Source of the DNA: a virus
Direction: 5' to 3' (one strand)
Virus genome (UHGV): UHGV-0154499
DNA length: 39,490 nt
A model generated the notes under the pieces. That model ran no database searches. It saw only the letters and a list, made by a program, of their open reading frames with translations, and was not told the DNA's origin. Positions 2,888 through 39,440 of this stretch are shown piece by piece (within the stretch, counting starts at the first letter, position 1; every line of letters starts with the position of its first letter). The position numbers and the translations under genes are program-made.

Positions 2888-2940
2888 ATCGCGCCCATAA
2901 AAAAAGCCACCCTGAGGTAGCCTGAGAAAAGAATTTTTTC

Positions 2941-3510
2941 TTACTGCTGATCTTCGACGTATATCCCAGCAGAAATAATCGCCCCACCAATTCGACGCTT
3001 ACCATACCCTAGGGGGACGGGATATCCCTGCGCCGCTGTATTAGTTACCCCGCCGAAAGCATACGAAGCGCGGTTATCTGCACTTTGTTTACTGGCAAGA
3101 CCTGATGGTTGTGGTGAGAGCATTTGAATAACTCCACCAGCAGCCAAAGAAATGCCTGCTGTAGCCACGTAATACTGCTGTGTTACAACCCCAACAACGA
3201 CCAAAGCAGCCCCAAGAATAGTTTGTAATAACCCTGCTTTTTTACTCCCAATAATTACAGGAACTATCCGTATAACCTCTCCTGTAACAGGATAACCAAG
3301 GTCACCCTCACCAATGTTTTTTTTCCCTTTAAATATGGCGTAAGTAAGCCCACGTCGTTTACTGGAGATCATATATTTCCGAAAACCATCTATGGTAGCC
3401 GAAAGAGCAACACCAGCTTCCTGCACATTGCTAATCAGTCGATGATGGGTCTTACCATAAATTTTCCCCAGATCTCCACCGAGTTCGATACGAGTCATTA
3501 CTTCAGTCAT
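2941..3510 (-). CDS. I: Tail assembly protein I
   Basis: Ubiquitin-like N-terminus (RIELGGDL), hydrophobic glycine-rich C-terminal half (GGVIQMLSPQ) as in lambda gpI. Start moved to the internal ATG at 3510, which has an AGAGG RBS; the track start at 3528 is TTG. Confidence 0.8.
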   Translation of the reverse strand: MTEVMTRIELGGDLGKIYGKTHHRLISNVQEAGVALSATIDGFRKYMISSKRRGLTYAIFKGKKNIGEGDLGYPVTGEVIRIVPVIIGSKKAGLLQTILGAALVVVGVVTQQYYVATAGISLAAGGVIQMLSPQPSGLASKQSADNRASYAFGGVTNTAAQGYPVPLGYGKRRIGGAIISAGIYVEDQQ

Positions 3511-3569
3511 TTGAACCTCTAAAAGCAAAAAACCCCGCCGTAGCGAGGTTTTGAAGAATATTAATTTGG

Positions 3570-3980
3570 TCAGAACGCCGTTGGGTGAATGCCAAAGTCG
3601 CCATTTGTTCCATAACCAATTCGGTACATGAGCGTGGCACTTTCAGTTACCTTGCCTGACTGTTCACTCATACCACCACCACATACACCTTTGGGCCATG
3701 CGCTAAAGATATGGTCACCTAATTTAGGGTAAACCGTTACCTTTTCAGCTGTATCTAAGTCCGCAACTTCTTTCCCATCAACATAGACACGAGTCAAACA
3801 TGCGCTACCCATAAATCCAGAATCCCTCTTGATGATCACCTTCCCTGTCCCATCATTTTTAACCAACATCGTATTGTCGATAATTTGTTTGACGGGAACA
3901 TCTTTTGCCTGCTCATTTGTTACCGGCTTAGTGGCGCAACCAACCATCAAAACTGCAAGTAGAATTATTCCTCTCTTCAT
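3570..3980 (-). CDS. Putative lipoprotein of unknown function (accessory gene; possible superinfection-exclusion protein)
   Basis: Internal start MKRGIILLAVLMVGC gives a signal peptide with a lipobox (LMVGC); the 19 residues upstream in the track ORF lack an RBS. No recognisable domain. Confidence 0.6.
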   Translation of the reverse strand: MKRGIILLAVLMVGCATKPVTNEQAKDVPVKQIIDNTMLVKNDGTGKVIIKRDSGFMGSACLTRVYVDGKEVADLDTAEKVTVYPKLGDHIFSAWPKGVCGGGMSEQSGKVTESATLMYRIGYGTNGDFGIHPTAF

Positions 3981-4020
3981 ATTCCTATCCCTTTGAGTCA
4001 ATTTGCTAAAATGGTAACAG

Positions 4021-4057
4021 GGAAAAGACAGCGACAAAACCCGCAGTTAAGCGGGTT
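4021..4057 (-). terminator. Rho-independent terminator downstream of the KilAC antirepressor gene
   Basis: Minus-strand hairpin AACCCGC-TTAAC-TGCGGGTT followed by TTTGTCGCTGTCTTTT. Confidence 0.5.
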
Positions 4058-4093
4058 GTGAGTAATACGATGAATACTTGAACTGTAGCCTGA

Positions 4094-4837
4094 TCAGGCC
4101 ACACTAGCCCCTTGGAGCAAATGTCGTAATGCCTTGATGCCTTCAGAGTTATAGCGAAACGCCTCAACCTGTTTATCGGAATGTTTCGACTTGTCGAGGA
4201 AGAATTTACCGTATTGCTCTGTTTTCAGATTGTGCTTGTTAGCCAAGCGACCAACCTTATTGGCAGAACAGCCGATCTCAGCAGCAACTTCTCCAGCGGT
4301 AGCGTAGTGTTCATCAATCAACGGCAAAGGCATGACCTCGTGCCCAAGCAGTGGATTAACAAGCGTTGCAACGATCACCTGGTTTGCTGATTCACCAAGT
4401 CTTGGGAACATTGACATCAACTCACGAGCTGAGGCGATATTTTTCTCCAGCGCCAGCGCTTTCAACTGCTCCGCCTTTGCACGTCGATATTCAGGAAGAC
4501 CCGAGCTATTTTGCGCTGAAATCTGGATAGCCTGCATATCTTCCAACTTATCAACTAGAGAACGTCGAACTGCTTTCGATTCACGAGCTGCTACGCGGAG
4601 GGCTTGCTTGATAGACATTGTAATTACTTCAATGTCTTGACCATTTTTACGACCTACACTTTTTGTGTAGGTCTCACCATCAAGCTCATCGACAACTTTC
4701 TCAATGAACTTGTTATTTCGGACAACCGGCTCACCGCACTGCTTTCGCGCGGCATTCACCATCTCCAGCAGGTACTGACTGTCAATGGTTTTCTCGGTGA
4801 CAACGCTACCCTTTGATGCTAAATTTAATGAAGTCAT
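4094..4837 (-). CDS. Phage antirepressor-like protein, KilA-C/ANT C-terminal domain
   Basis: C-terminal ATAGEVAAEIGCSANKVGRLANKHNL matches the KilAC (ANT) DNA-binding pattern; AAGGA RBS 9 nt upstream of the ATG. Confidence 0.65.
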   Translation of the reverse strand: MTSLNLASKGSVVTEKTIDSQYLLEMVNAARKQCGEPVVRNNKFIEKVVDELDGETYTKSVGRKNGQDIEVITMSIKQALRVAARESKAVRRSLVDKLEDMQAIQISAQNSSGLPEYRRAKAEQLKALALEKNIASARELMSMFPRLGESANQVIVATLVNPLLGHEVMPLPLIDEHYATAGEVAAEIGCSANKVGRLANKHNLKTEQYGKFFLDKSKHSDKQVEAFRYNSEGIKALRHLLQGASVA

Positions 4838-4864
4838 TAAGTGGTCCTTATGACGGTTTCATGG

Positions 4865-4899
4865 ATAGCCGATAGCTCGAACTATCGGCTATTCTTTTT
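4865..4899 (+). terminator. Perfect 11-bp inverted repeat with a plus-strand T-run (terminator-like, or a regulator binding site)
   Basis: ATAGCCGATAG-ctcgaa-CTATCGGCTAT followed by TCTTTTT, between the BRO-N and antirepressor genes. Confidence 0.4.
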
Positions 4900-4913
4900 G
4901 CATTTAAGCAAAT

Positions 4914-5495
4914 TCAATAAATCCTCGGTCGTTCTCCCTGTTGTAGTTGTTGATCAGCATATTCCTTAATCATATATATGAATGCCGCCCCATCATTAAA
5001 ACGATCATGAAGGCGACCAGCCAAAGGTGACTCTATTGCCCTCAAAGCTGGTTCTATCTGGTTAAACCATGCTTCACACATAACCTCGAAATAATCGAAC
5101 ATTGCGTTTGCATTGTGGGCGTGGATTTCACGATTGCTGAGCATCTTTGTTGCTGGAATGTTTATAGAAACCTCACGATCCAGAATGTCTAAAACCCAGC
5201 GTCGGAATTCTTTAGCAACTGGAGTTCTGGCAAACATAGCGACCATGTGTGCGCCACGTAGAGAAAAAACCCGAGTTTCCTGATTCCCACCAGGGGTGGT
5301 CAACCTGACCACCCTTGTCATTTTTTCTGTAAATTCATCACAATGCCTAGCATGTATGCGCTGTACAGCCTTATCGTCTGCATACTGAAGCGCAAAACCG
5401 ATCTGATTTGCGCTCAACCAAATTCCATCGATATCGGAGATGGTCTGAAAAGATACGCCTTGGAAGTTAAGCTCTGTTTTGGTTACACTATTCAT
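4914..5495 (-). CDS. BRO-N domain protein (phage antirepressor/regulator family)
   Basis: BRO-N-like N-terminus (ELNFQGVSFQTISDIDGIWLSANQIGFALQY...RVFSLRGAHMVAMFARTPVAKEFRRWVLDIL). Start set at the internal ATG (MNSVTK) with an AAGGAAA RBS; the track start at 5591 is GTG and overlaps the upstream small gene. Confidence 0.7.
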   Translation of the reverse strand: MNSVTKTELNFQGVSFQTISDIDGIWLSANQIGFALQYADDKAVQRIHARHCDEFTEKMTRVVRLTTPGGNQETRVFSLRGAHMVAMFARTPVAKEFRRWVLDILDREVSINIPATKMLSNREIHAHNANAMFDYFEVMCEAWFNQIEPALRAIESPLAGRLHDRFNDGAAFIYMIKEYADQQLQQGERPRIY

Positions 5496-5568
5496 GTCGA
5501 TATTTCCTTCGCGGGATTTGTTCGATAAGAAGCCCCGGCTATCGCAATTAGTTGGGGCTTCACTGTTT

Positions 5569-5736
5569 TTAAGCCTGAGCACTTTTTTCACCTGTCAAAC
5601 CATATGCCTTTCTCAGTTGGTAAATCAGTTCGGTATTGAACTGACGACATTCTTCCCCGCCATTCCTTTCAATCGCCTCGCGAACATCCTCCGGAATGCG
5701 AATTTTGCGCTGGTACATATCTTTCGCTTTTTGCAT
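5569..5736 (-). CDS. Small Arc-like ribbon-helix-helix protein (55 aa), not in the ORF track
   Basis: Manual translation MQKAKDMYQRKIRIPEDVREAIERNGGEECRQFNTELIYQLRKAYGLTGEKSAQA; strand-helix-helix pattern like Arc/Mnt; AAGGAG RBS 6 nt upstream; first gene of the minus-strand operon ahead of BRO-N. Confidence 0.55.
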   Translation of the reverse strand: MQKAKDMYQRKIRIPEDVREAIERNGGEECRQFNTELIYQLRKAYGLTGEKSAQA

Positions 5737-5854
5737 TTCATCTCCTTAAGCCCCACCGTGGGGCACTAAAAGTGTCACACCGTGCGTCATTGAAGTCAAC
5801 CCCACCGTGGGGCATAATTTACAAATTGTGAATTTTTAGAGGTCAAGCCAGCAA
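5737..5854. promoter_or_regulatory. Divergent promoter/operator region with two copies of the 13-bp palindrome CCCCAC-C-GTGGGG
   Basis: Palindromes at about 5751-5765 and 5800-5814. Plus-strand promoter TTGAAG-17 bp-CATAAT overlaps copy 2; minus-strand promoter TTGACT-17 bp-GACACT lies just upstream of copy 1. Confidence 0.55.
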
Positions 5855-6289
5855 ATGAGCAGAGAAGATCCACAGCTTAGAATCAGACTTCCTATTGAAT
5901 TGAAAGAAAAAATTGAGGAAGCAGCTAAGTCTAATAATCGCTCCATGAATGCAGAAATTGTTCAGCGTCTTGATGCCAGTTTCTTAAGCGAAATGCCGGT
6001 AGATGAATTAGTTTCAGCTGAAGAAGCCCTACTTATCGTAAGTCGCGCAAAGGATGAACTGTCAGGGATAATTTTCAAACGGACATTTTCCGTCATTAAC
6101 GAGAAGATCCGTATTGGGCACACTACATTCCATATCAGCCTTAGCGACTTAGACCTTGAAGGCTTGAGCGATGATGATTTTGAAGCTGTGTTTAAGTCTA
6201 CATTCTCCCGCCTAAAAAGCCTGGGTTACAACATTTGGGAGTCAAGCTGGGATGTGAACGGATTCATGGTTGAGATTCCTAAGAAATAG
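5855..6289 (+). CDS. Arc/Mnt-like ribbon-helix-helix repressor with a C-terminal extension (144 aa)
   Basis: N-terminus RIRLPIELKEKIEEAAKSNNRSMNAEIVQRLDASF is a canonical Arc/MetJ-family RHH motif; transcribed divergently from the small RHH/BRO operon. Confidence 0.7.
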   Translation: MSREDPQLRIRLPIELKEKIEEAAKSNNRSMNAEIVQRLDASFLSEMPVDELVSAEEALLIVSRAKDELSGIIFKRTFSVINEKIRIGHTTFHISLSDLDLEGLSDDDFEAVFKSTFSRLKSLGYNIWESSWDVNGFMVEIPKK

Positions 6290-6296
6290 ATTCACA

Positions 6297-6321
6297 GTAA
6301 AAGCCCACCTTATGTGGGCTT
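6297..6321. terminator. Bidirectional terminator between convergent gene K and the Arc-like gene
   Basis: AAAAGCCCAC-cttat-GTGGGCTT with U-runs on both strands; overlaps the K stop codon. Confidence 0.5.
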
Positions 6322-7030
6322 ATAAAAGATCCTTATACCGTAGAACCTTTGTCGTTCTTTCCTGCCAGTATCCCCCATACGGTACACGCTGACTCAAATG
6401 ACCATAAAGATGGTGGAGTAACATGTTACCTTCCAGCAGGATCCCTGCATGGTTCCACTTATTAGCCTGGACCTGCATGATAACCATATCACCTGGCTGC
6501 GGTACGCCACTGAATTCTCGGAATCCGCATTCATACCAGCAATCGTGGTAGAAATTTTCGGGGTAACTATCCTCCCACCAGGGATAATCCACGCGGTAAT
6601 CCGTCAGCTCAATGCTATGCGTTTGCCGGAAATAACTCATCACCAGCCCCCAGCAATCGAAATGGCCGAGCACGAACGGACGTTCCAGCAGCGGTAACTC
6701 GCCGCGCGGCTGAATGGTGCGTAAATCCCCTTCCGGCCAGCTGACGATATGCCAGGGAAGTAACGTAGCGTCACACTGTGCCTTATCCAGTTCGCTCGCC
6801 TGCGTCGTGGCATCCGGGTGGCTGTGGACAATGGCAATCACTGTTCCCCAGTCTTCGGCAGCGGCATAATCTTCCGGCGACAGGTGGAAATGCTCTGTTG
6901 GATCGGTTGCCAGATTACGGCAGGGAATGTACCGCTGCACCCTGCTTTTTTGCACCACTACGCCGCAGCTCTCCCGCGGATATTCAGCGGCAGCATGCGC
7001 CATAATGGCATTGATAATTCTCTGACGCAT
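6320..7030 (-). CDS. K: Tail assembly protein K (JAB/MPN plus NlpC/P60 domains)
   Basis: JAMM motif HSHPD and an NlpC/P60-like C-terminal half; sits between L and I as in lambda. Confidence 0.85.
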   Translation of the reverse strand: MRQRIINAIMAHAAAEYPRESCGVVVQKSRVQRYIPCRNLATDPTEHFHLSPEDYAAAEDWGTVIAIVHSHPDATTQASELDKAQCDATLLPWHIVSWPEGDLRTIQPRGELPLLERPFVLGHFDCWGLVMSYFRQTHSIELTDYRVDYPWWEDSYPENFYHDCWYECGFREFSGVPQPGDMVIMQVQANKWNHAGILLEGNMLLHHLYGHLSQRVPYGGYWQERTTKVLRYKDLL

Positions 7031-18470: not shown

Positions 18471-20392
18471 TATTCATCTCCAGATAATGCCCGGGCATAA
18501 TCAGCCAGGGTTTTGTTATTGGTCCGCCCCCCCTCTTCCTCCAGCAGGCTCGCGAGCAGTGAATCAAGATTCAGTTGCCATCGCGAAATACTGATCCGCA
18601 GGGCCGCCAGCGCATACACGAAGCAGTCCAGCGCCTCATTTCGTCGCTTTTTGCTGTCCCAGACGATTTTCTTACGCCCGTCCACCCATTTTTCAACCTG
18701 CTCCTCAGCAGTAAGCTGCTGTGCCTCAGCCAGATCATAAATTTCGGGGTTATTGGGGAAATGCACGGCACCGGCAAGAGGATCACTCCCTTCCGGCTGA
18801 AGTGTGAAGCGGTTATAAATCTGCTCCTTTGCGGTATCAGTACCCACTTCCGTAAGATAAACGCCGTTCTTGTTGCGTTTACGCGGCATATTCGCGACGG
18901 GCTTGCCGTAAACGGAAGCCCCTTTAATCGGGATCACGCGAAACAGGCCATGCTTTTTTGAGCGATTGTAGACAATGGTGGGGTCAATACCGCCGATATC
19001 CCAGCAGATACGGGATACCGACATTTCCACGCCATTCTTTCGGGGGTAGGTTTTGTTAATCGCCTCGTCCACCCTGACGAGGGTCGCTTCATCATCATGA
19101 CGGCCCATAATGATTTGCCGGTCAATCAGCCAGCTTTCCTCTCCGGGTCCCCATCCCCAGACGCGCATTTCATATCGATCCAGCTGTGAGTCAATCCCGG
19201 CTGTCAGATAAGCAACACGATCCGGTACGGATGCCCCAAAAAACTCTTTGCGTTCGGCCATGAGCTCCGCGTCAGGCCGTTCACCAATTTTAGGCTCCCA
19301 TGTTTCGCCCAGAGTGGTGTTCACGAAGGTTTTACGCTTTCCGGTATCCCCTTTCGTTTTTAGCCAGTCTTTAACGATCTGTACCCAGGTGGTAAACGGG
19401 CTGTATGCCGTCCAGATGTGAAACGTCACGCTGTCTGGCGGGTCGATTTCGGTGCCTGTTGATGAAAACCAGGATAAACCATCACGCGTCCAGATCCCGG
19501 TGGTGTCACAGATGTAACGAGCTTCACTGAAATCCAGCTCCTGCTGCTTAATGACGCAGGCATTATGTTCACACAGGTAAAAGACGCTGGAGGGATCGCC
19601 AGGTGTCCATTTGAACCCGAACGGGGTTTCTTTGTCGCCGAACTTCAGGTACTGCTCTTCACCACAGTGCGGACAGGAAACATGAAAACGCATGAAATGC
19701 CCGGACTCGCTGGCAGCACGCTCAATCTGGCAGGTCCCCTTTGTTTTTGGCGTTGAGCCGCGAATAGATTTGGGCCAGACAGACCCCTCAATACGTTTAT
19801 CACCCAGGAACGTCGGGGAACCCTCTTTCTCAATATCCTCATCAAAAGCAGCGAGTTCGTCATAGCCGGCAACATCCACTGACTTTTCACGATAGTTTTT
19901 CGCCGCCTTACCACCCAGACACCAGAACCCGCGACCGTTGGAGAATCGTTTCATACTGAGCGTATTGTCCCGGTGCTTTTTGCCATACCAGGGGGCCAGC
20001 GCCAGAAGTGACGGAATATCGCGAATCGTCGGCTCAACATGCGACTTCATGAAGTTTTCGGCGTCACCATCAGTGGGCAGCCAGATAAGGGAATTTCGCT
20101 GCTTGTGCTGAATAAAATACGCATAAACACCCAGCAACATTTTTGAATAGCCAACACGGGCAGACTTAACAACGTTGACCTCACGTATGTAATCGTTACC
20201 CATCGCATTCATGATCGCGCGTTGAAACGGCAACGTTTCCCAGCGCCCTTCCTGGTAGGCCGACTCTTTGGGGAGATAGTAATTATCGTCTGCCCATTCA
20301 ACCGCCGTTTGCGGCTCAGGTCGGTACAGCGAAAGTAAACCCGCGCGCGCAGAGTGCTGCAGCCCCTTAACCTGACTGTTCGATATATTCAC
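18470..20392 (-). CDS. A: Terminase large subunit A
   Basis: 640 aa; long stretches match recalled lambda gpA ([33 protein letters not shown]..., Walker-like region, C-terminal nuclease). Confidence 0.96.
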
Positions 20393-20912
20393 TCAGCAAC
20401 CCCGGTATTATTTCATCCAGCGCAGCTGCTTTGTTCATGGCTTTAATGATGTCCTTCTTGAGGAAATCAATATGTCGGTTTTCCAGCTCCGGGAAGCGCC
20501 GCTGAACCGACAGAGGAACTCCATCAAGAATGCTGGCTACTTCTCCGGCCATCCGCGACAGCACGAACGTGCAGAATGCGGTTTCCACCACCTCAGCGGA
20601 ATCTTTTGCATTTTTTAGTTCCTGGGCATCTGCCTGCGCTCGGGTGAGGCGGTGACGCTCATAGTCAATCGTACCAGGCTGAAGGTCGGATTCCGATGCA
20701 AGACGAAGGTCTTCCACCTCCTTGCGTAATTTCTCATTCTCAATCGCCGCGTCGCGTGCGGAATACCATTCGATAGCCGCGGAAGATTCATAGAGGACCT
20801 CATTACCTTTTCCACCGCCACGTGCTACAGGCATTCCCTGATCCTGCCAGTTCTGAATGGTTCGCACGCTGACCCCAAATATTTCAGAAAGACGCTTTTT
20901 GTTGACCTCCAT
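20367..20912 (-). CDS. nu1: Terminase small subunit Nu1
   Basis: MEVNKKRLSEIFGVSVRTIQNWQDQGMPV... wHTH; near-identical to lambda Nu1; overlaps the start of A. Confidence 0.95.
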   Translation of the reverse strand: MEVNKKRLSEIFGVSVRTIQNWQDQGMPVARGGGKGNEVLYESSAAIEWYSARDAAIENEKLRKEVEDLRLASESDLQPGTIDYERHRLTRAQADAQELKNAKDSAEVVETAFCTFVLSRMAGEVASILDGVPLSVQRRFPELENRHIDFLKKDIIKAMNKAAALDEIIPGLLSEYIEQSG

Positions 20913-20929
20913 AGCTCACTCCATACACA

Positions 20930-21105
20930 AAAACAGAGAAAGGAAACGCCCTCTGGTTATTTAGCCGTTTTTAAGGCTTATCATTTCCTTTCTTTTCAGG
21001 GGGTGTTTACAGTTAAAACAATGAATTAGAGAGAAGAAGAACGGAAACGGCAAATGCCTGAAAATTTTCATAAATAGCGAGAATCTGCGAGGTCGCCGCC
21101 CCGTA
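20930..21105. other. cos site: cosN cohesive-end sequence at about 21090-21101 and cosB between cosN and nu1
   Basis: Minus-strand reading GGGGCGGCGACCTCGCAGATTCTCGCTATTTATGAAAATTTTCAGG...CGTTTCCGTTCTTCTTC is highly similar to recalled lambda cos (GGGCGGCGACCT 12-nt cohesive end, then cosB elements). Confidence 0.8.
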
Positions 21106-21278
21106 ACAAGCCAAATCGCCTGAAAGGACCCGTAAACAATAATGATTATCAATTACATATTATTGACGATAGATATGATTCCAGATAACTACTACCGAAA
21201 AACATTCCATCATGATAGCTTTGCGGCGTACAAGCATCGTAAATGACCAGTGACCGTTACGTCTCTTGTAATTAATTT

Positions 21279-22151
21279 TTAAAAAGCAATATCAATTAGT
21301 TCTCCTTTGCTCAATATTTTTCTAAAAATTTCAGCTCCATAAAGTGTAATAACACCTTCCAGAGTACAAAGAGGTTCCTTAGCACGAGCCATACATAAAC
21401 CACTTTTAGCACCGCCATTTAGTTTAGTATGAAGTGTTTTTGTAAGAATAGCAGCGAGTTCTAAGTCACTTATCTCTGCTACCGTATTTTTATTCAATTG
21501 TGACCTTTCGATTAGTTGAATAAAAATATCGATTCGACCAGGAGTTAACCCAAGATCTTGTGATAGCTCGTGTATTAAACCCCGTAAATCAACTTCAGCC
21601 TTAGGAGTAAAACGCCAATGTTTTATACCAAACTCTTTACCGTTACATGGTGCACCGATAACAACAGCCCTAAGTAAACTTAAAAATCCTTTACAAAACA
21701 CCCAGTTACCATCCGAGTATTCAATACCAAAATCACCACCCACACTATTTTTACTGTAAATATAATGATAATCCTCTGGTATACCAGACTCATGAACATC
21801 ATTACATCTTAATAAATGGTAAATTATATCTTCTGGTGCTGTCTCAGCTACTATCAACTGTGGGATTTCATCCCAATAATATGCTTCCTCAGGAAGGTTA
21901 TACCCCATAATTTGTTGTAACCTTACACGGAGAAATCTTTTATATTTTTCCCCATCTGTCATTCGTTTTTTTTGGGCTTGTCCCTTTGTTTTTTTTGGTT
22001 TAGTTATGGGTTCTTGTTCAAAAGGGAAAACTTTGAGAGCTGATCCAGATATAGCTGTCACCAAAAGCAGAAGTGCAGCTTCGTAACGACTATGAGAAAT
22101 CAAAAAATCAACATCATCCAAGCGTTTTTTTATGTTACTTACCTTTTGCAT
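21279..22151 (-). CDS. Hypothetical 290-aa protein, AT-rich accessory gene (moron) between cos and the lysis cassette
   Basis: Complete ORF with ATG, flanked by AT-rich noncoding DNA on both sides; GC visibly far below the phage backbone; no recognisable motifs. Confidence 0.6.
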   Translation of the reverse strand: MQKVSNIKKRLDDVDFLISHSRYEAALLLLVTAISGSALKVFPFEQEPITKPKKTKGQAQKKRMTDGEKYKRFLRVRLQQIMGYNLPEEAYYWDEIPQLIVAETAPEDIIYHLLRCNDVHESGIPEDYHYIYSKNSVGGDFGIEYSDGNWVFCKGFLSLLRAVVIGAPCNGKEFGIKHWRFTPKAEVDLRGLIHELSQDLGLTPGRIDIFIQLIERSQLNKNTVAEISDLELAAILTKTLHTKLNGGAKSGLCMARAKEPLCTLEGVITLYGAEIFRKILSKGELIDIAF

Positions 22152-22362
22152 GTTTCACCATTTTCACAAGATAGAAAACGATAAAACAACCACAATTCCC
22201 AATCAGAGGCAAGCTTTTAAATATAAAAATTAAGGATAGAATACAATAAAAATCATAATTCAAAAATTCGTATGCACTTAACTTTCATCCTACATAAGCT
22301 GAAGCATTATAAAACATGACTATATTATTGTTTCCATCAGATTACATTACCAGAAAAACCAA

Positions 22363-22575
22363 TTATTTCATGCAATTAGCTTGCACAGCTCTATTATGTA
22401 CCAGAATATCCCGTTTCGTCTGCCTATCCAGCACGGCAATATCATGCTCTGTGAGGTAGATGATGTTCACCCAGTCACAGGCCGTGTCCGTTACTTCAGG
22501 TTTTGCGGGTAAAGTTTTCGCGCAACTCGCGGTTAACATCGTCATCAGGAAGATGATTAACAGTCTGTTGTACAT
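22363..22575 (-). CDS. Outer-membrane spanin subunit (Rz1-like lipoprotein), overlapped architecture
   Basis: Signal peptide with lipobox (LTASC); AAGGAG RBS; overlaps the 3' end of the upstream i-spanin-like gene in another frame. Confidence 0.6.
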   Translation of the reverse strand: MYNRLLIIFLMTMLTASCAKTLPAKPEVTDTACDWVNIIYLTEHDIAVLDRQTKRDILVHNRAVQANCMK

Positions 22576-22765
22576 CCATGGCTCCTTTTGTTGTTTCTAC
22601 CCGGCGTTCTGCAACGGCTTCAGTAGCGGCTGCACGTTCTTCAGTGCGTTGCTGGTCTGCTTTTGTTTCAGCGATACTGGTACTGCGTGATTTACCCAGA
22701 CCAAAAGCACCGGCAATTGCTGCCAGCACGGCAACAACCAGGCCGATAATCATTTCAAGTCCCAT
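22496..22765 (-). CDS. Inner-membrane spanin subunit (Rz-like)
   Basis: N-terminal TM helix (MIIGLVVAVLAAIAGAFGL) then a charged, coiled-coil-like periplasmic region; directly downstream of the endolysin; start set at internal MGLEM with a GAGG RBS. Confidence 0.6.
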   Translation of the reverse strand: MGLEMIIGLVVAVLAAIAGAFGLGKSRSTSIAETKADQQRTEERAAATEAVAERRVETTKGAMDVQQTVNHLPDDDVNRELRENFTRKT

Positions 22766-22772
22766 AGTGACC

Positions 22773-23387
22773 TCACACCAGTGCAACTTTTGCTTTGGCG
22801 TAACGTTCACGGCGGTCTTTAATGCCGTTCTGTCCGCCGTTAATAATCTGCGTTACGCGTTCCACATCCCCCGAATACATCAGGCAACCGCGTAACGTGA
22901 AGTACCACGCCGCCGAACGAGCCGCGTGTCGCTCCTGCGTTAGCAATTCTGGTGTACTGACAAGGTCAAGTTTCAGCGCAGCACCACATTTGGTGTAGTT
23001 CTCACGGCCAGTAATTTGAAGCAGGCCACGACCGCGATATTTCCAGCCGTCACCCTGGCTGTTATTCCCCATGCGGTCACCGTAAACCAGATTGGCTATT
23101 TGCGGCTGGTGGGCGACCTGCTGACCATCGACACGCCCCAGCATTTCGCACTGATACGGCGTCAGACGCTTACCGAAGGTTTTCTTCAGCCCCTCAACCG
23201 AGTAGTTGAAGCTTTCTACCAGCGAAGTAAAACCAGCAGATTCATGCCCAACTTGTGCAATGAACATGGCCTGGTCGTTAAGTGCTGTAATACCAAACTC
23301 TTTCATTGCTGCATCAATGTGCAGAAACCAGCGTGCAGAAACCCCGGCGCTGATACCAGCCGCCTGCTGAAATTGTGATTGGTTCAT
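22773..23387 (-). CDS. Endolysin, glycoside hydrolase family 19 (chitinase-like)
   Basis: GH19 catalytic-region motifs (IAQVGHESAGFT, YRGRGLLQITGRENY). Confidence 0.85.
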   Translation of the reverse strand: MNQSQFQQAAGISAGVSARWFLHIDAAMKEFGITALNDQAMFIAQVGHESAGFTSLVESFNYSVEGLKKTFGKRLTPYQCEMLGRVDGQQVAHQPQIANLVYGDRMGNNSQGDGWKYRGRGLLQITGRENYTKCGAALKLDLVSTPELLTQERHAARSAAWYFTLRGCLMYSGDVERVTQIINGGQNGIKDRRERYAKAKVALV

Positions 23388-23542
23388 ATGTATACCGGAT
23401 TAAACCACTATTAATAGTAGGGATTAGAATTCACCTAAGATGATGAAATTCAATTTAATTTAAGTCACAATAAGACTTAAGATAAATCTTAATGATTTCA
23501 TCTTCTTTGCGGGTTGTAGCGATGTCGCTGCGACTCGCTTTT

Positions 23543-23824
23543 TTATTTGTGCACAGCATCAATAAGCCGCGCTACGTTGCCTCTGACGGCGACCAGCACG
23601 GACAAGAAAATAATGTTGGCCCCGATAGTGGCCCACGATGAGTAAGGGTAGATACCACACAGATACGCCAACGGAACGGCGCTGTAGATGACCGTAAGCA
23701 GCCACGCTAAGCGAGATATCCACGGTCGATGTCGGGAATCACCACGACGGTAAAACATCAGGGTCAACACTATCCCAGCGCAAAGCAGCGCGTTGATTGT
23801 TGCCGATGGGTCATTTAGTACCAC
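23543..23824 (-). CDS. Small membrane protein of the lysis cassette (second holin or antiholin-like)
   Basis: 93 aa with 2-3 predicted TM segments; overlaps the upstream holin gene by 14 nt. Confidence 0.55.
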   Translation of the reverse strand: MVLNDPSATINALLCAGIVLTLMFYRRGDSRHRPWISRLAWLLTVIYSAVPLAYLCGIYPYSSWATIGANIIFLSVLVAVRGNVARLIDAVHK

Positions 23825-24197
23825 CTGAACCTCCCCGGCGCGTTATCAGCGCCACCAGCGAGCCGACATCCTGGTTATTCAGAAACGTCAGGATTTTGAC
23901 AGCTAAAGCAGAAACGATTACGGCCCCGATAGCGTCCAGAGGCTTATCACTGTAACCAGTCCAGTCAGCCAGCTTTGAACCAACCAGCCCTGAGCAGATG
24001 ATCCCGGCAATGTAGGACACGACAAAATACGCCAGCCGGCGCGCTGCACTAAGGTCCGCGGCGGTTGCAATGTAAAATACAGCCCCGGCAAATGCGCCAA
24101 ACACCACGCCGTAATCGGTTCCGGAAAGAAATCCATAGACACTGGCCCCCGTCAGGACACCACCAGCCAGTCCAGTACCGGAAATCGGATCGGACAT
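23811..24197 (-). CDS. Holin-like membrane protein
   Basis: 128 aa, glycine/alanine-rich TM segments, charged C-terminus; first gene of the late lysis cassette. Confidence 0.65.
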   Translation of the reverse strand: MSDPISGTGLAGGVLTGASVYGFLSGTDYGVVFGAFAGAVFYIATAADLSAARRLAYFVVSYIAGIICSGLVGSKLADWTGYSDKPLDAIGAVIVSALAVKILTFLNNQDVGSLVALITRRGGSGGTK

Positions 24198-24379: not shown

Positions 24380-24420
24380 TTTTGATAAATTAAAGACTCA
24401 CAGCACATTAAAGTTCAAAT
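24380..24420 (-). promoter_or_regulatory. Candidate late promoter PR' (minus strand)
   Basis: TTGAAC-18 bp-TTTAAT on the minus strand, upstream of the tR'-like terminator; placement relative to Q is unusual. Confidence 0.3.
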
Positions 24421-24448
24421 GTTAACTATTAGATTCCAAAGGAATATT

Positions 24449-25390
24449 ATGACGACTGCAGTTGCGGTAAAAAAACCCAAAAAACTACGAATTGGATTCT
24501 ATACAAGTAGTTCTGGAACCATTCGGAGCCACTCTGTTGCCAAAGCTGCGATCGATAACCTTTACAGTACTTGCGTAAATGTAACTAATAATCATTTCGA
24601 TACTATATATAAAAATAAAAAATTGAAAATCGCATTTATTAATAAAGATGCCAATGCTAAATATTATTTTGGCTATATGTCTTGCTCAAGGGAAGAATAT
24701 CTACTGCCTTATATTGGAGATGAGAACTGGAAAGAACACAACATCCCATTAGATGATAAAAAATATATTGTCGAGCGCACTTATTTTTTGTATTACTACG
24801 AAAGTGACATTCTGATCCTTACGCAAAATCATCTTGGCCCCAAGGAATCGGATCTGGCTTACCTTTTATACAGCCAGAGTGGTCAACCAGGTAACAACTT
24901 TTCTTTCCAAGCTATTTGGAAGAAAGAAAGTATAAAAGAGCTTCTCGAAACAGGAAGTACACTTAGAAGCTGCGATCTCATTCTTGCTGCCCCAAGAAAT
25001 TTCGATGTGACTAATTATCAGTTAGATAGCTCATTTTCAAAAGATCTTCTGAATATGATGGTTGGCCTTGGCGGCACACATTTAAAACTCAATCTTAGGG
25101 GTAGAGCATCTGGCAGAGTTAAAGTTAAAGGCTATCTTTCGGATCTGATAAAAGATGGTATTAAAGAATTATTAGAAAAAATGCCAAATATTGTCAAAAA
25201 AGCAGCAGTAACACAGCCCAAAAATACTGTAGAGCAAAGCCTTCTTGAACAAGTTCTCATTTCGGAGAAAAACATTCATACCGTAAATGGTTATGGCACA
25301 GATAGCGATGTGCTCCAAGCGATGATTTCTGCTAAAATTGACAACAATGGTTACCTTATCCAGTACGACATAAGCAATAAGAAGGTATAG
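24449..25390 (+). CDS. Hypothetical soluble protein (313 aa), first gene of a two-gene accessory cassette; RexA-like by architecture
   Basis: AT-rich ORF; start at internal ATG with an AAAGGAA RBS; lysine-rich, no TM segments. Possible weak similarity to RexA from memory (GFY near the N-terminus, LGPKESDL...LL), unverified. Confidence 0.6.
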   Translation: MTTAVAVKKPKKLRIGFYTSSSGTIRSHSVAKAAIDNLYSTCVNVTNNHFDTIYKNKKLKIAFINKDANAKYYFGYMSCSREEYLLPYIGDENWKEHNIPLDDKKYIVERTYFLYYYESDILILTQNHLGPKESDLAYLLYSQSGQPGNNFSFQAIWKKESIKELLETGSTLRSCDLILAAPRNFDVTNYQLDSSFSKDLLNMMVGLGGTHLKLNLRGRASGRVKVKGYLSDLIKDGIKELLEKMPNIVKKAAVTQPKNTVEQSLLEQVLISEKNIHTVNGYGTDSDVLQAMISAKIDNNGYLIQYDISNKKV

Positions 25391-25393
25391 TTT

Positions 25394-25837
25394 ATGTTAT
25401 TGAGATATATAGCAAATATTTTAGGGAGCATTTTACTAACATATTTCTTACTGAAGTATGTCCCACTAATGCAACATAATGATATTCTTACGTCCGCAGG
25501 GGTTATCTCCACTGTGTCTGGGATTTTGTTTGGGTTTGTGCTTGCCACCATTTCAATTTTTAGCGCAGCTAGCGCTAATTCAAATGGGGTTTTAAAGGCC
25601 TTAAAAAACAATAACATACTCCAAGGAATTGTAACTAATTTATTAGCCGCTGGAGCGACATTAATTACAGCATGCTTGATTTCACTCGTTGCCATGTTTG
25701 TCAGTGACAATTTAGTCTACAATGACCAAAAAATAGAGTTTATATTCATAATTCAATCATTATCACTATTGATAGTAGCCGTCATAATGTTTGGGTTTAC
25801 TTGGCGTAAAATTAATTGGTTTTTACCACACATATAA
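25394..25837 (+). CDS. Small integral membrane protein with four predicted TM helices (147 aa); RexB-like by size and topology
   Basis: Four hydrophobic segments (about residues 5-24, 34-58, 75-103, 115-137); starts 4 nt after the upstream gene's stop; GAAGGT RBS. Confidence 0.6.
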   Translation: MLLRYIANILGSILLTYFLLKYVPLMQHNDILTSAGVISTVSGILFGFVLATISIFSAASANSNGVLKALKNNNILQGIVTNLLAAGATLITACLISLVAMFVSDNLVYNDQKIEFIFIIQSLSLLIVAVIMFGFTWRKINWFLPHI

Positions 25838-25858
25838 AAGGGCATCCGTGCCCTTTTT
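25837..25858. terminator. Bidirectional intrinsic terminator between the membrane-protein gene and convergent Q
   Basis: AAAGGGCA-tccg-TGCCCTTT with T/A runs on both sides, immediately after both stop codons. Confidence 0.65.
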
Positions 25859-25859
25859 A

Positions 25860-26222
25860 TCAATCCAAATCTAATCTAGCACTAATCATGCACAAACAGC
25901 CGTCAACAAAACCCTCTGCCATTTGCATCTCTATCCTTATTATTTTTTCGTCTTTTTTTTGAGCTTTAGCAATTTTACGCTTCGATACTCCATACAGATA
26001 ATGTGCGACAATAAGTGAATGCTCATATGGTTTCCTTTTCTTGAGGCGAGCTAAGCAACCTTCAATAATCAGAGCATCTTCATCAGTGCAAGAAAGGCGA
26101 GTCTTGCTCGTTTGGGGAAGTAGCCCTTTAAAGCCAGCTGCAATTGGTGAGTAATCCACGCCAGAACTATCGCTCGCGGCCCATCCCCCCCAACGTTCTA
26201 ATACCATCTGAATATCACGCAT
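25860..26222 (-). CDS. Q: Late-gene antitermination protein Q (phage 82/21-type family)
   Basis: 120 aa; MRDIQMVLERWGGWAA... N-terminus and Cys-rich region typical of 82-type Q antiterminators. Confidence 0.8.
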   Translation of the reverse strand: MRDIQMVLERWGGWAASDSSGVDYSPIAAGFKGLLPQTSKTRLSCTDEDALIIEGCLARLKKRKPYEHSLIVAHYLYGVSKRKIAKAQKKDEKIIRIEMQMAEGFVDGCLCMISARLDLD

Positions 26223-31299: not shown

Positions 31300-31398
31300 T
31301 TTTCCCTCTGGAGTTAAGTAATGCAGTGCACTGATAGTAGGATATCTTACATTAAATGGTCAAGCACTCCTACATCAGATAATGGTAGGATTGCCTAC
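31300..31398. promoter_or_regulatory. OR-like operator/promoter region between cro and cI (PR/PRM)
   Basis: Operator copies TAGTAGGATATCTTACAT (about 31335-31352) and TGGTAGGATTGCCTACAT (about 31383-31400), plus a third inverted element CCTACATCAGATAATGGTAGG. Confidence 0.65.
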
Positions 31399-32055
31399 AT
31401 GAAAATGAATGATCGAATCCGAAGCAGACGAAAAGAGCTAAAGATGACGCAATCTGTCCTGGCAAAGCTTGTCGGGGTTAATCGCGTCACCATCACCGGT
31501 TGGGAATCCGGTGACTACAAACCGGGTGGTGAAAACCTCCAGGCGCTTGCGGCTGCACTAGAAAAGACGCCGCAGTGGTTACTGGAAGGAAAGGATGATG
31601 GAAGTCAGCAACCACCAACCATGGACCCGGAGCAAAGATTCGGAATTAGGTCAGTTCCCGTTCTCACATGGGTACAGGCCGGGGAATGGACGGCCAATAG
31701 CGGAACGATCACAGAGCGGGACATTCATGACTGGGTCTATACTTCGGCTGCCGTTTCTGAAAGCGCATTTGCACTCATTGTTCGCGGCGACTCGATGACC
31801 AACCCTACAGGTGCACCAAGTATCCCCGAGGGCTCTATTGTCGTTGTAGAGCCTGATTTTGGTGATGCCAGTCAAGCTAATGGAAAAATTGTTATTGCAC
31901 AGCTTCTGGGAAGTGATGAAGCCACTATTAAAAAGTTCGTCATTGATGGGCCGCTGAAATACCTAGTACCTCTCAACCCCAATTACAGGATTTTAGAAGT
32001 CAATGGCAACTGCCGATTGGTAGGGTTAGTAAGACAAGTAATAATGGATTTATAA
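31399..32055 (+). CDS. cI: CI-like repressor (HTH plus LexA/S24 peptidase-like C-terminal domain)
   Basis: N-terminal HTH (LKMTQSVLAKLVGVNRVTITGWESG) and C-terminal S24 domain with the Ser region (IVRGDSMTNP) and the Lys-containing region (VIAQLLGSDEATIKKF); start set at MKMND. Confidence 0.88.
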   Translation: MKMNDRIRSRRKELKMTQSVLAKLVGVNRVTITGWESGDYKPGGENLQALAAALEKTPQWLLEGKDDGSQQPPTMDPEQRFGIRSVPVLTWVQAGEWTANSGTITERDIHDWVYTSAAVSESAFALIVRGDSMTNPTGAPSIPEGSIVVVEPDFGDASQANGKIVIAQLLGSDEATIKKFVIDGPLKYLVPLNPNYRILEVNGNCRLVGLVRQVIMDL

Positions 32056-38126: not shown

Positions 38127-39440
38127 ATGGATAAAGTCACATATCCAACAGGCGTCGAAAACCACGGTGGCACATTACGCATCTGGTTTAATTTTAAAGG
38201 TAAGCGTGTCAGGGAAAGTCTCGGTGTCCCTGACACCGCTAAGAACAGGAAGATAGCCGGGGAACTGCGGACATCAGTATGTTTTGCCATCCGCACAGGA
38301 ACCTTTGATTATGCAACTCAGTTTCCTGACTCCCCTAACCTCAAGGCTTTTGGTGTAAGTAAAAAAGACATTACAGTGAAAGAACTTGAAGAAAAATGGC
38401 TGGATCTGAAACGGATGGAAATCTGCGCGAACGCATTCAATCGCTATGAGTCTGTCGCAAGGAATATGGTGCCGAGGATCGGAGGTAATCGCCTGGTGTC
38501 AGCAGTAACCAAAGAGGAATTGCTGTATCTCAGGAAAGATTTGCTAACTGGTTACCAGAATCCGACGAAAAACAAAGCTCCGGCAAAAGGGCGAAGCGTT
38601 GTTACTGTGAACTATTACATGACGACAATGGCCGGAATGTTTCAGTTTGCTGCAGATCACGGTTACTTAGAGGTGAACCCATTCGAGGGAATTAAACCTC
38701 TGAAAAAAGCCAGGGCAGAACCAGATCCGCTGTCTCGTGATGAATTTATTCGCCTGATAGATGCATGCCGGCATCAGCAGACGAAAAACCTGTGGTCATT
38801 AGCAGTGTACACAGGAATGCGTCACGGGGAACTGGTCTCCCTGGCCTGGGAAGATATCGACCTGAAGGCGGGAACAATTACCGTCAGGCGTAATTATACG
38901 AAACTTGGTGAGTTCACTCTACCGAAAACCGAGGCAAGCACAGATCGAGTGGTGCATCTTATCCAGCCCGCAATCAGCATCCTGAAAAATCAGGCTGAGA
39001 TCACAAGGCTGGGCAGGCAACATCACATTGAAGTTCAGTTACGTGAGTACGGCCGTTCGGTGAACCATGAGTGTACATTCGTCTTTAACCCGCATGTGGT
39101 CAGACGCAGTAAGCAGGTCGGATTTATCTACCGGGTCGATTCAGTAGGCGACTCATGGGAAGCTGCACTTAAGCGCGCGGGGATCAGACACAGAAAGGCG
39201 TACCAGTCACGACATACCTATGCGTGCTGGTCATTATCTGCTGGTGCAAATCCGAGTTTTATTGCCAGTCAGATGGGACATGCGAGCGCGCAGATGGTGT
39301 TCAATGTTTACGGTGCATGGATGGCTGACAGCAGCGCAGAGCAAATAGCAATGCTCAATCAGAAGCTGGCAGATTTTGCCCCATTGATGCCCCATAGCCA
39401 CGAGAGCAGTACGGGAGGATTATTAAAATCAGTAAGTTAA
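38127..39440 (+). CDS. int: Tyrosine site-specific integrase with N-terminal arm-binding domain
   Basis: N-terminal GTLRIWFNFKGKRVRESLG arm-binding domain; C-terminal catalytic region with the R...H..R...Y signature (GMRHGEL, HTYACW, VFNVYGAW). Confidence 0.9.
   Translation: MDKVTYPTGVENHGGTLRIWFNFKGKRVRESLGVPDTAKNRKIAGELRTSVCFAIRTGTFDYATQFPDSPNLKAFGVSKKDITVKELEEKWLDLKRMEICANAFNRYESVARNMVPRIGGNRLVSAVTKEELLYLRKDLLTGYQNPTKNKAPAKGRSVVTVNYYMTTMAGMFQFAADHGYLEVNPFEGIKPLKKARAEPDPLSRDEFIRLIDACRHQQTKNLWSLAVYTGMRHGELVSLAWEDIDLKAGTITVRRNYTKLGEFTLPKTEASTDRVVHLIQPAISILKNQAEITRLGRQHHIEVQLREYGRSVNHECTFVFNPHVVRRSKQVGFIYRVDSVGDSWEAALKRAGIRHRKAYQSRHTYACWSLSAGANPSFIASQMGHASAQMVFNVYGAWMADSSAEQIAMLNQKLADFAPLMPHSHESSTGGLLKSVS

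Follow-up and report, generated by a model that had tools for sequence, protein, structure and literature searches.

An AT-rich cargo gene of the Rv1289 family between the spanins and cos of a phi80-like prophage: a possible HEPN-like defence protein

The DNA analysed here, UHGV virus genome UHGV-0154499 (39,490 nucleotides; hereafter the window), is an essentially complete lambdoid, phi80-like prophage, and our subject is a single gene at the junction of its lysis and packaging regions. The open reading frame (ORF) lies on the minus strand at 21279..22151, starts with ATG and encodes a 290-residue protein of 32.7 kDa, referred to below as the cargo protein. It occupies the interval 21102-22362, which extends from the first base past cosN to the last base before the stop codon of an Rz1-like gene (22363). 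Directly upstream of the cargo gene, the lysis cassette ends with a spanin pair (22363..22810, minus strand) made up of an Rz-like gene (22496-22810) and an Rz1-like gene (22363-22575), the latter a 70-residue ORF that matches PHROG 1275, 'Rz-like spanin', with E=8.6e-31. On the opposite side is cosN (21090..21101, minus strand), the letters of whose 12-nt cohesive end, GGGCGGCGACCT, were verified; the cargo gene is upstream of cosN and ends 177 nt from it. The first gene downstream of cos is Nu1, for the terminase small subunit (20367..20912, minus strand; Pfam Phage_Nu1, E=1.2e-93), and from cos through Nu1 the DNA shares 99% identity with the annotated end and Nu1 region of phi80. Elsewhere in the prophage are an integrase (38127-39440), a CI-like repressor (31321-32055) and the antiterminator Q (25860-26222). 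From Q onward the order is two holins, a GH19 endolysin, the spanins, the cargo gene, cos, Nu1, the large terminase, the portal and the tail genes, with the cargo gene on the same strand as the late operon.

The cargo gene stands apart from its surroundings in composition. The entire window has a GC content of 0.508, and in a 500-bp profile the backbone lies at about 0.51-0.58, with a sharp trough (0.36) confined to 21001-22500. GC content is 0.344 for the interval 21102-22362, 0.355 for the gene (0.213 at third codon positions, GC3), 0.28 for the 211-bp upstream intergenic region and 0.367 for the downstream intergenic region; the flanking terminase, portal and endolysin genes have values of 0.51-0.56 (GC3 0.52-0.60). 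These values bear out the original prediction for this locus, which described a strongly AT-rich 290-residue gene at the cos-lysis junction. The same prediction gave the gene AT-rich flanks of its own, and this is correct: the DNA is AT-rich on both sides, but from 21229 down to cos it is phi80 backbone. Homology to phi80 and to the phi80 prophage of DH5alpha runs from Nu1 through cos and ends about 55 nt beyond the stop codon of the ORF, at about 21230. The exchanged segment therefore spans about 21230-22362 (minus strand), with the Rz1 stop codon as its other edge, and forms an AT-rich cassette of about 1.13 kb and 0.34 GC in place of the content that phi80 carries between Rz/Rz1 and cos. 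The remaining stretch on the cosQ side (21102..21229, minus strand) is common to phi80 and includes a remnant of the 3′ end of a phi80 gp66-like, N15 gp59-like gene. The DH5alpha prophage match reaches window position 21226, overlapping the last ~64 nt of an annotated hypothetical gene, and it is here that backbone homology breaks. The break within the gp66-like remnant is an apparent recombination scar where the old cargo was replaced.

The slot between the spanins and cos holds different genes in different phages. Although phi80 and its DH5alpha prophage have Nu1 and cos in common with the window at 96-99%, their slot content is different, consisting in phi80 of rha and four other ORFs (about 2.5 kb). 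Other E. coli lambdoid prophages carry bor/ybcV/ybcW/ylcI, or rha alone, or ynfO/ydfO/IS3/gnsB. Lambda bor and the borD/ybcV/ybcW genes of DLP12 occupy the same slot, from the spanins to cos/Nu1, so that the cargo position of the lambda bor type proposed in the original prediction is confirmed. Genes of the bor type in this slot are accessory and dispensable for lytic growth. Bor itself is a small lipoprotein that is encoded on the opposite strand and confers serum resistance, and it has no sequence, domain or predicted localisation in common with the cargo protein. No match to the cassette DNA was obtained among 50,697 phage records or in 5,426 complete E. coli genomes, even at the 'distant' sensitivity of blastn. 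The cassette is accessory cargo (a moron) in a variable slot, and the gene is not part of the conserved lambdoid core, phi80 and other prophages carrying unrelated genes in its place.

The sole close copy of the protein (P0001) is 94% identical over its full length; a second phi80-like prophage (L002) encodes it, in the slot that corresponds to this one. At the nucleotide level, the two cargo genes are 96.3% identical, compared with 85% for the flanking Nu1 and 91% for the endolysin, and the ratio of nonsynonymous to synonymous substitution rates (dN/dS) is about 0.37. Because the gene is more conserved than its flanks and has this dN/dS, it appears to be a functional module recently exchanged between diverged backbones. 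A spurious ORF is ruled out by the dN/dS value together with family-wide conservation, the cargo protein aligning end to end with more than 100 homologues. Composition, absence from related phages and conservation above that of the backbone all agree in pointing to horizontal acquisition of the cassette, as had been proposed.

The protein had been called an orphan, and this does not hold. A search of a protein collection returned only seven homologue clusters, all seven of which (P0001 included) carry the precomputed Pfam annotation PF27329, 'Rv1289'; the assignment comes through this annotation of the homologues, the Pfam copy that we scanned directly being one without a PF27329 model. With a profile built from the homologues, 261 clusters were collected at E<=1e-3 from 1.84 billion representatives, and nearly all are single-domain proteins of 270-295 residues. 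Direct scans of the cargo protein against the local Pfam, PHROGs, NCBIfam and PADLOC libraries gave no recognised family; a match to DUF6433 (E=0.24) was dropped, as it did not recur among family members. No model of PADLOC 2.0 matches the cargo protein, and 106 family members give singleton sub-threshold hits only. PF27329 is named for, and includes, the Rv1289 protein of Mycobacterium tuberculosis, and is a small family of uncharacterised function. Like the cargo gene, Rv1289 is a stand-alone gene, but it is chromosomal and lies outside any phage context. Its annotation reads 'unknown protein' or 'H.P.' (PMC3087520, PMC10470581), and the gene has been flagged as horizontally transferred, with a GC content below that of the genome (PMC3087520); the literature on Rv1289 yielded no functional data. 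Outside phages, the family extends to a plasmid and to chromosomes of Desulfobacterota, Gemmatimonadota, Campylobacterota, Pseudomonas and Mycobacterium. The close enterobacterial subfamily had no locus in 185,579 species-representative genomes.

Genes of the Rv1289 family are present in the cargo slots of at least six unrelated mobile elements. In a Klebsiella phage and a Cronobacter phage, whose head and terminase modules are unrelated to each other and to those of phi80, the homologue lies between the lysis cassette and the packaging genes and is co-oriented with them. A Serratia lambdoid prophage has the gene between DUF968 and Q; it is the final gene of the genome in a siphophage-type tailed prophage of Vibrio, and a lone gene adjoining the integrase in PM2-like (Vinavirales) Vibrio prophages. 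The last of these are represented by Vibrio phage 10N.261.45.F7_PE001 (PQ189319.1) and ten sibling records, which are integrated elements of about 13.5 kb in Vibrio cyclitrophicus with a distant (28%) family member beside the integrase and a YafO-family toxin at the opposite end; the family therefore crosses into another viral realm, Varidnaviria. The Cronobacter slot shows a further variation. Directly upstream of the Rv1289-family gene in one prophage is a gene (L006:9460-9666) for a 68-residue protein of the Acb2/Tad1-hairpin group, an anti-CBASS/Thoeris sponge family; the protein has no PADLOC match. A near-identical sibling (L005) is without this gene and has an HNH gene downstream instead, and the slot thus mixes putative defence and anti-defence cargo.

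The orientation of the gene raises the possibility that it serves the phage in its lytic cycle. In lambda, genes of the late operon are read from the Q-antiterminated late transcript, and the cargo gene is expected on that transcript because it is co-oriented with the late operon. Its product might then be a late lytic function, namely a counter-defence protein, a factor for host takeover or an accessory to lysis or packaging. The gene is co-oriented with the late operon, between lysis and packaging, in four lambdoid-type phages, and transcription from the Q-antiterminated late promoter follows from this arrangement; the Acb2/Tad1-hairpin gene that immediately precedes the homologue in this slot of one Cronobacter prophage is in keeping with such a role. 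We nevertheless consider it very unlikely, since the family has a wide distribution outside phages, both in chromosomes and on a plasmid defence island, and since in other elements the gene occupies slots in the early region or close to the integrase and runs on the other strand from the structural genes. A role in packaging or lysis, moreover, would not tolerate a swap for rha or bor in sister phages.

Two of the contexts are recognised defence loci. In a P2-like prophage (P0007 locus), the homologue lies between the replication gene A and the portal gene, in the cos-proximal gpA-gpQ slot, where it adjoins a gene resembling NsnA/PD-T4-2_A (PADLOC E=5e-58) and a HEPN_RiboL-PSP gene. The gpA-gpQ slot is the cos-proximal defence hotspot defined by Rousset et al. 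2022, and the old and tin genes are located there in P2 (PMC9122126). Three genes adjoin the homologue in this hotspot (L020:2674-5628): one for a 360-residue GmrSD_N/NsnA/PD-T4-2_A-like protein, one for the 162-residue HEPN_RiboL-PSP protein and a 276-residue ORF without a family, which is another uncharacterised occupant. On a conjugative plasmid of Cupriavidus, an integrase is close by, and the genes adjoining the homologue are Wadjet JetA (E=3e-236), an AbiC/AbiP-like gene and one annotated as encoding a HEPN protein. Ten further loci are chromosomal and stand-alone, in Desulfobacterota, Burkholderiales, Pseudoalteromonas, Campylobacterota, Gemmatimonadota and Pseudomonas; they have sizeable flanking gaps, and the GC content of the gene is often under that of the locus (e.g., 0.55 versus 0.71). 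Among 98 pooled neighbours of these ten loci from diverse phyla there was no recurrent partner gene, and a conserved partner was rejected in view of the heterogeneity of the pooled neighbours. Taken together, the contexts of the relatives show that the Rv1289-family gene is a mobile single-gene module that has repeatedly entered accessory slots.

The original prediction had seen no recognisable motif in the protein, yet the family has one. In alignments of 106 and of 109 members, the only invariant columns are Y111, R115 and H120. They belong to the family motif Y-x3-R-[C/N]-x-[LV]-[IV]-H-E, an Rx4H motif, which in the cargo protein reads YHLLRCNDVHE (21789..21821, minus strand; coordinates verified) and is located at the C-terminal end of a helix formed by residues 106-121. 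Conservation in the 106 members is also high at E121 (85%), C116 (79%, the remainder mostly N), N170 (89%), F174 (91%) and G272 (93%). We predict that the Y111/R115/H120 motif constitutes an active site. An AlphaFold2 model from a deep alignment has a predicted local distance difference test score (pLDDT) of 93.2 and a predicted template modelling score of 0.89. In this model, the N-terminal region (residues 1-178; 21618..22151, minus strand) consists of helices 7-19, 23-41, 66-81 and 106-121, a beta-hairpin (143-152) and a helix at 156-165. Helix 2 is joined to the next helix by a Lys-rich linker of low pLDDT (residues 42-65, FPFEQEPITKPKKTKGQAQKKRMT; 21957..22028, minus strand), which is encoded in part by two A8 runs. 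A match of the linker to the nuclear localization signal region of p53, the sole yield of profile searches of PDB sequences with the full-length protein and the N-terminal region, was set aside as a chance match. The A8 runs in the cargo ORF, at 21966-21973 and 21989-21996, and an A7 run at 22125-22131 are potential sites of slippage or phase variation.

The position of the invariant residues suggests a comparison with HEPN domains, which are four-helix bundles, often with a long insert between helices 2 and 3, and with an Rx4-6H motif at the end of helix 3 (PMC3710099). The secondary structure predicted for the cargo protein is compatible with this description, in that a long insert follows helix 2 and the Rx4H motif ends helix 106-121. 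R115 and H120 have the required spacing and are invariant in both alignments. Remote homology was examined by scanning each of the 106 members singly against the Pfam, NCBIfam and PADLOC libraries of hidden Markov models (HMMs). TIGR04498, AbiV_defense, was the sole NCBIfam family matched by more than one member (6/106, best E=0.02). In Pfam, HEPN_AbiV was matched by 5/106 members (best E=0.031), the only other recurrent family being a winged-helix family (6 members), and PADLOC AbiV was matched by one member (E=0.017). Apart from the winged-helix family, AbiV (PF18728, TIGR04498) is the only recurrent remote match in the three HMM libraries. AbiV of Lactococcus cremoris MG1363 is a proven anti-phage HEPN ribonuclease (RNase; preprint 10.1101/2024.05.05.592566).

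For a direct comparison, the lactococcal AbiV gene was recovered from a metagenome contig by means of a primer sequence in the preprint, and an AbiV family alignment was built for hhalign. The cargo family aligned to it with a score of 28.3 (P=1.2e-3, probability 19%) over 71 columns, from helix 1 through helix 2 and the Lys-rich loop to the helix after it, with R77 opposite the invariant R110 of AbiV. Control scores were 11.0 for the reversed profile, 13.1+-2.0 (maximum 18.4) for column-shuffled profiles and 18.0+-4.1 for block-shuffled profiles, of which 4/150 equalled the native comparison. Because of the native score relative to these controls, the profile similarity to AbiV is judged to be real but local, without confident extension to the Rx4H region. 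The profiles are collinear over helix 1, helix 2, the flexible Lys-rich loop and the next helix, the linker of the cargo protein lying opposite a Lys-rich segment of AbiV, and in both proteins a helix comes after a beta-hairpin at about residues 141-152.

The differences from AbiV are also considerable. AbiV has R-x5-H in a flexible loop, whereas the cargo protein has a strict Rx4H on a helix, together with about 110 extra C-terminal residues. The AbiV invariants H37, E66, E67, K70, H93, K96, R136 and Y141 are not reproduced, and only R110 is aligned (with R77); the EE-x2-K of AbiV helix 3 corresponds to SS-x-K in the cargo protein, and H93/K96 fall in a non-homologous loop. An equivalence of R115-x4-H120 with AbiV R136-x4-Y141 was considered and is unsupported, the extended hhalign alignment pairing Y111 with Y141 at zero confidence. 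AbiV depends on abiV2, an RNA antitoxin encoded upstream, of which the cargo locus showed no counterpart. Foldseek draws no link between AbiV and the cargo protein. The highest-scoring local alignments with two bona fide HEPN neighbours pair R with R and H with H, without reaching significance. Our reading of the comparisons is that the cargo protein is outside the AbiV family and may be called HEPN-like by its motif and predicted architecture, membership in the superfamily being unproven.

What, then, might the gene do? The gene and its cassette are foreign to the backbone and mobile between elements, and the protein belongs to PF27329, has no conserved partner and carries an invariant motif. 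It is quite possible, if a little short of an even chance, that the product is a stand-alone HEPN-like protein of abortive infection or superinfection exclusion. We infer the defence role from the neighbourhoods (the P2-like hotspot and the Wadjet/Abi island of the plasmid) and the RNase chemistry from the motif and the weak similarity to AbiV; the trigger, the sensor and the expression in lysogens are inferred likewise. Defence, exclusion and virulence had all been offered as functions for this gene. Single-gene defence or exclusion is the best supported of them, through guilt by association, while no evidence favours virulence.

Several observations weigh against this interpretation. The residue after the conserved R in HEPN domains is typically polar, being N, D or H (PMC3710099), and position 116 of the family is mostly Cys (79%), which is atypical for HEPN; the Asn variants fit. 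The AbiV and HEPN matches are all sub-threshold, with best scores of about 13-14 bits against a cut-off of 27.1 bits, those obtained with the consensus cover helices 1-2 only (profile positions 14-40 of 155), and the cargo protein itself matches no PADLOC, PHROG or NCBIfam model at threshold. The hhalign probability is only 13-19%, 4/150 block-shuffled controls reach the native score, and the Rx4H region has no confident alignment to AbiV. Foldseek searches of the PDB with the pLDDT-93 model detected no HEPN or other fold (best E=1.5), a shallower model likewise gave nothing below E=1.5, and a structure search of BFVD gave a single marginal, unnamed match (E=0.15). With regard to expression, a consensus scan gave neither a promoter on the minus strand nor a terminator beside the cargo gene, so that production in the lysogen is supposition, and co-orientation with the late operon implies transcription in the lytic cycle of the phage itself, where an unregulated RNase would be awkward. 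Finally, the neighbourhoods of relatives, which had been proposed as a check, include the P2 defence hotspot and the plasmid Wadjet/Abi island, but the ten chromosomal loci lie amid housekeeping genes and are without obvious defence neighbours.

Some of these observations would be accommodated if the cargo protein were a defence or exclusion protein with a new fold rather than a HEPN RNase. The Y/R/H triad would then serve another chemistry, for example that of a deoxyribonuclease or of an enzyme of nucleotide or NAD+ modification, or would form a ligand-binding site, and immunity would have a mechanism that is new to the literature. Such a protein would share the same defence neighbourhoods, and it would be consistent with the lack of a Foldseek match for the pLDDT-93 model in the PDB or BFVD, the lack of a sequence relative in the PDB, the confinement of the AbiV similarity to two helices and the usual Cys after R, which is unusual for HEPN. 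The HEPN-like spacing and helix-end position of the motif speak for the RNase interpretation instead, and we regard a non-HEPN defence protein as unlikely.

The C-terminal domain (residues 185-290; 21282..21599, minus strand) is modelled as helical (189-290), with a short beta pair, and is winged-helix-like. Weak Pfam matches to wHTH-PRTase_assc at about residues 237-265 were obtained for six members and for the family consensus. The domain is a candidate sensor or nucleic-acid-binding module. A winged-helix-like region also fits a DNA-binding regulator, and Rha-type regulators are among the other occupants of the slot; the positional analogy with bor, in turn, suggests a factor of lysogenic conversion or virulence that alters host physiology. 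These roles are the least probable of those considered here, and we hold them to be highly improbable. No membrane-spanning segments are present in the predicted secondary structure, neither a signal peptide nor a lipobox is apparent when the N-terminus is read, and no regulator or virulence family was matched at threshold. The invariant residues, furthermore, are in the N-terminal domain, outside the part that resembles a winged helix-turn-helix, and the distribution of the family in environmental bacteria argues against virulence.

If the cargo protein is a HEPN-like defence protein, a plausible scenario is as follows. The lysogen would produce it in an inactive state, its promoter presumably lying in the AT-rich DNA ahead of the gene. 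An incoming phage would be sensed, presumably via the C-terminal domain, upon which the HEPN-like site, probably in a dimer, would cut RNA and thereby halt the growth of phage and host. In the upstream intergenic region (22152..22362, minus strand; 28% GC), TATAAT at 22306-22311 is a perfect -10 hexamer, but the -35 is weak. In L002 the region is 90% identical and the -10 is TATGAT. An apparent 14-bp stem over the ribosome-binding site was rejected because, by eye, it is not kept in L002.

The requirement of AbiV for an RNA antitoxin makes a toxin–antitoxin (TA) organization worth considering. The 211-nt upstream region contains no tandem repeats, has no significant RNA structure (z=-1.36) and has no match in Rfam, and an RNA antitoxin, as in a type III TA system, was rejected on these grounds, though an unstructured or novel RNA may exist. 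More broadly, the gene might be a toxin or addiction module that selfishly stabilises the prophage or another element hosting it, or a factor of growth arrest under stress, without a dedicated anti-phage role. It is a stand-alone gene across prophages, plasmids and chromosomes, often with a lower GC content than its surroundings, HEPN proteins are frequent as TA toxins (PMC3710099), the lactococcal AbiV acts as a type III TA toxin, and the PM2-like elements of Vibrio carry a YafO toxin as well. Against this, no conserved adjacent antitoxin gene was found and the upstream region is as described; a lone toxin would not be maintainable unless auto-inhibited, which points back to a triggered protein of the sensor type. 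A toxin or addiction module is accordingly quite unlikely in our estimation.

For the reading as a HEPN-like defence protein, the closest functional model is Tha of Staphylococcus aureus prophages, a 301-residue single-protein HEPN defence with the RxxxxH motif R265NSIMH270, which acts as an RNase of the abortive-infection type and is triggered by a structural protein of the incoming phage (PMC11087260). Tha-1 and Tha-2 resemble the cargo protein in being prophage-encoded single proteins of ~300 residues that combine an unannotated domain with a HEPN or HEPN-like one. There are differences: HEPN is C-terminal in Tha and the HEPN-like region N-terminal in the cargo protein, with no sequence similarity detected, and Tha belongs to the lysogeny module of phages of a Gram-positive host and has a dedicated inhibitor, Ith, while no partner of the cargo gene was seen. 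A second parallel is with the old/tin locus of P2. The P0007 homologue is in the gpA-gpQ hotspot, adjoining the portal gene and cos, and the cargo gene is also cos-proximal, although the window phage is lambdoid and not P2-like. We know of no systematic description of the lambdoid Rz-cos slot as a defence hotspot. For the gpA-gpQ hotspot, a defence function has been validated in single-gene systems whose domains are unknown (Rousset et al. 2022, PMC9122126).

A wider proposal can be made, which we put forward as doubtful. PF27329 would be a hitherto unrecognised single-protein anti-phage system spread across phyla, with a divergent HEPN-like Y/R/H site, a new C-terminal sensor and a fold without a solved counterpart, and the lambdoid Rz-cos slot would correspond in function to the cos-proximal defence hotspots of P2 and P4. 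The exchange of cargo next to cos would then be a common way for temperate phages to swap genes for immunity. Single-gene HEPN-type defences borne by prophages in variable hotspots are already known; PF27329, however, is uncharacterised, absent from PADLOC 2.0 and without a solved structural relative. Many comparable candidates exist, and the mechanism rests on weak homology. Should the predicted role as a HEPN-like defence protein prove right, an uncharacterised family that extends from enterobacterial prophages to M. tuberculosis would gain a function and join AbiV and Tha as compact single-gene immunity of the RNase type. The idea of a defence hotspot adjacent to cos would also extend from P2/P4 to lambdoid phages, and Enterobacteriaceae, with their thousands of lambdoid prophages, could be mined for new defence genes by a simple positional rule. 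Should it prove wrong, the cargo gene stays an ordinary moron.

Other parts of the window are also mosaic. The lysis cassette (22773-24197) encodes Phage_holin_8, Phage_holin_3_7 and a GH19-type endolysin and is unrelated to the lambda-S-like holin and R-like lysozyme of phi80, so that there is a mosaic junction on the lysis side of the cargo too, despite the 99% identity to phi80 in Nu1/cos. The tail-tip and host-specificity (J-like) region, at window positions 1-6500, is at most ~79-83% identical to any of the 5,426 E. coli genomes. Because this region is diverged and the cassette is missing from all of these genomes, the host of the prophage may be a species other than E. coli.

There is a second AT-rich island at 24419-25837 (plus strand), where GC content is about 0.35-0.36 over 24501-26000. 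It lies between Q (25860-26222) and a holin (23811-24197), on the strand opposite to the late operon. In Stx phages, stx is carried in the slot between Q and the holin. The island encodes a 323-residue DUF6731 protein (Pfam E=3e-11; phrog_7651 E=3e-144), followed by a 147-residue ORF without a family, neither of which matches PADLOC, and it is probably another cargo module, of two genes.

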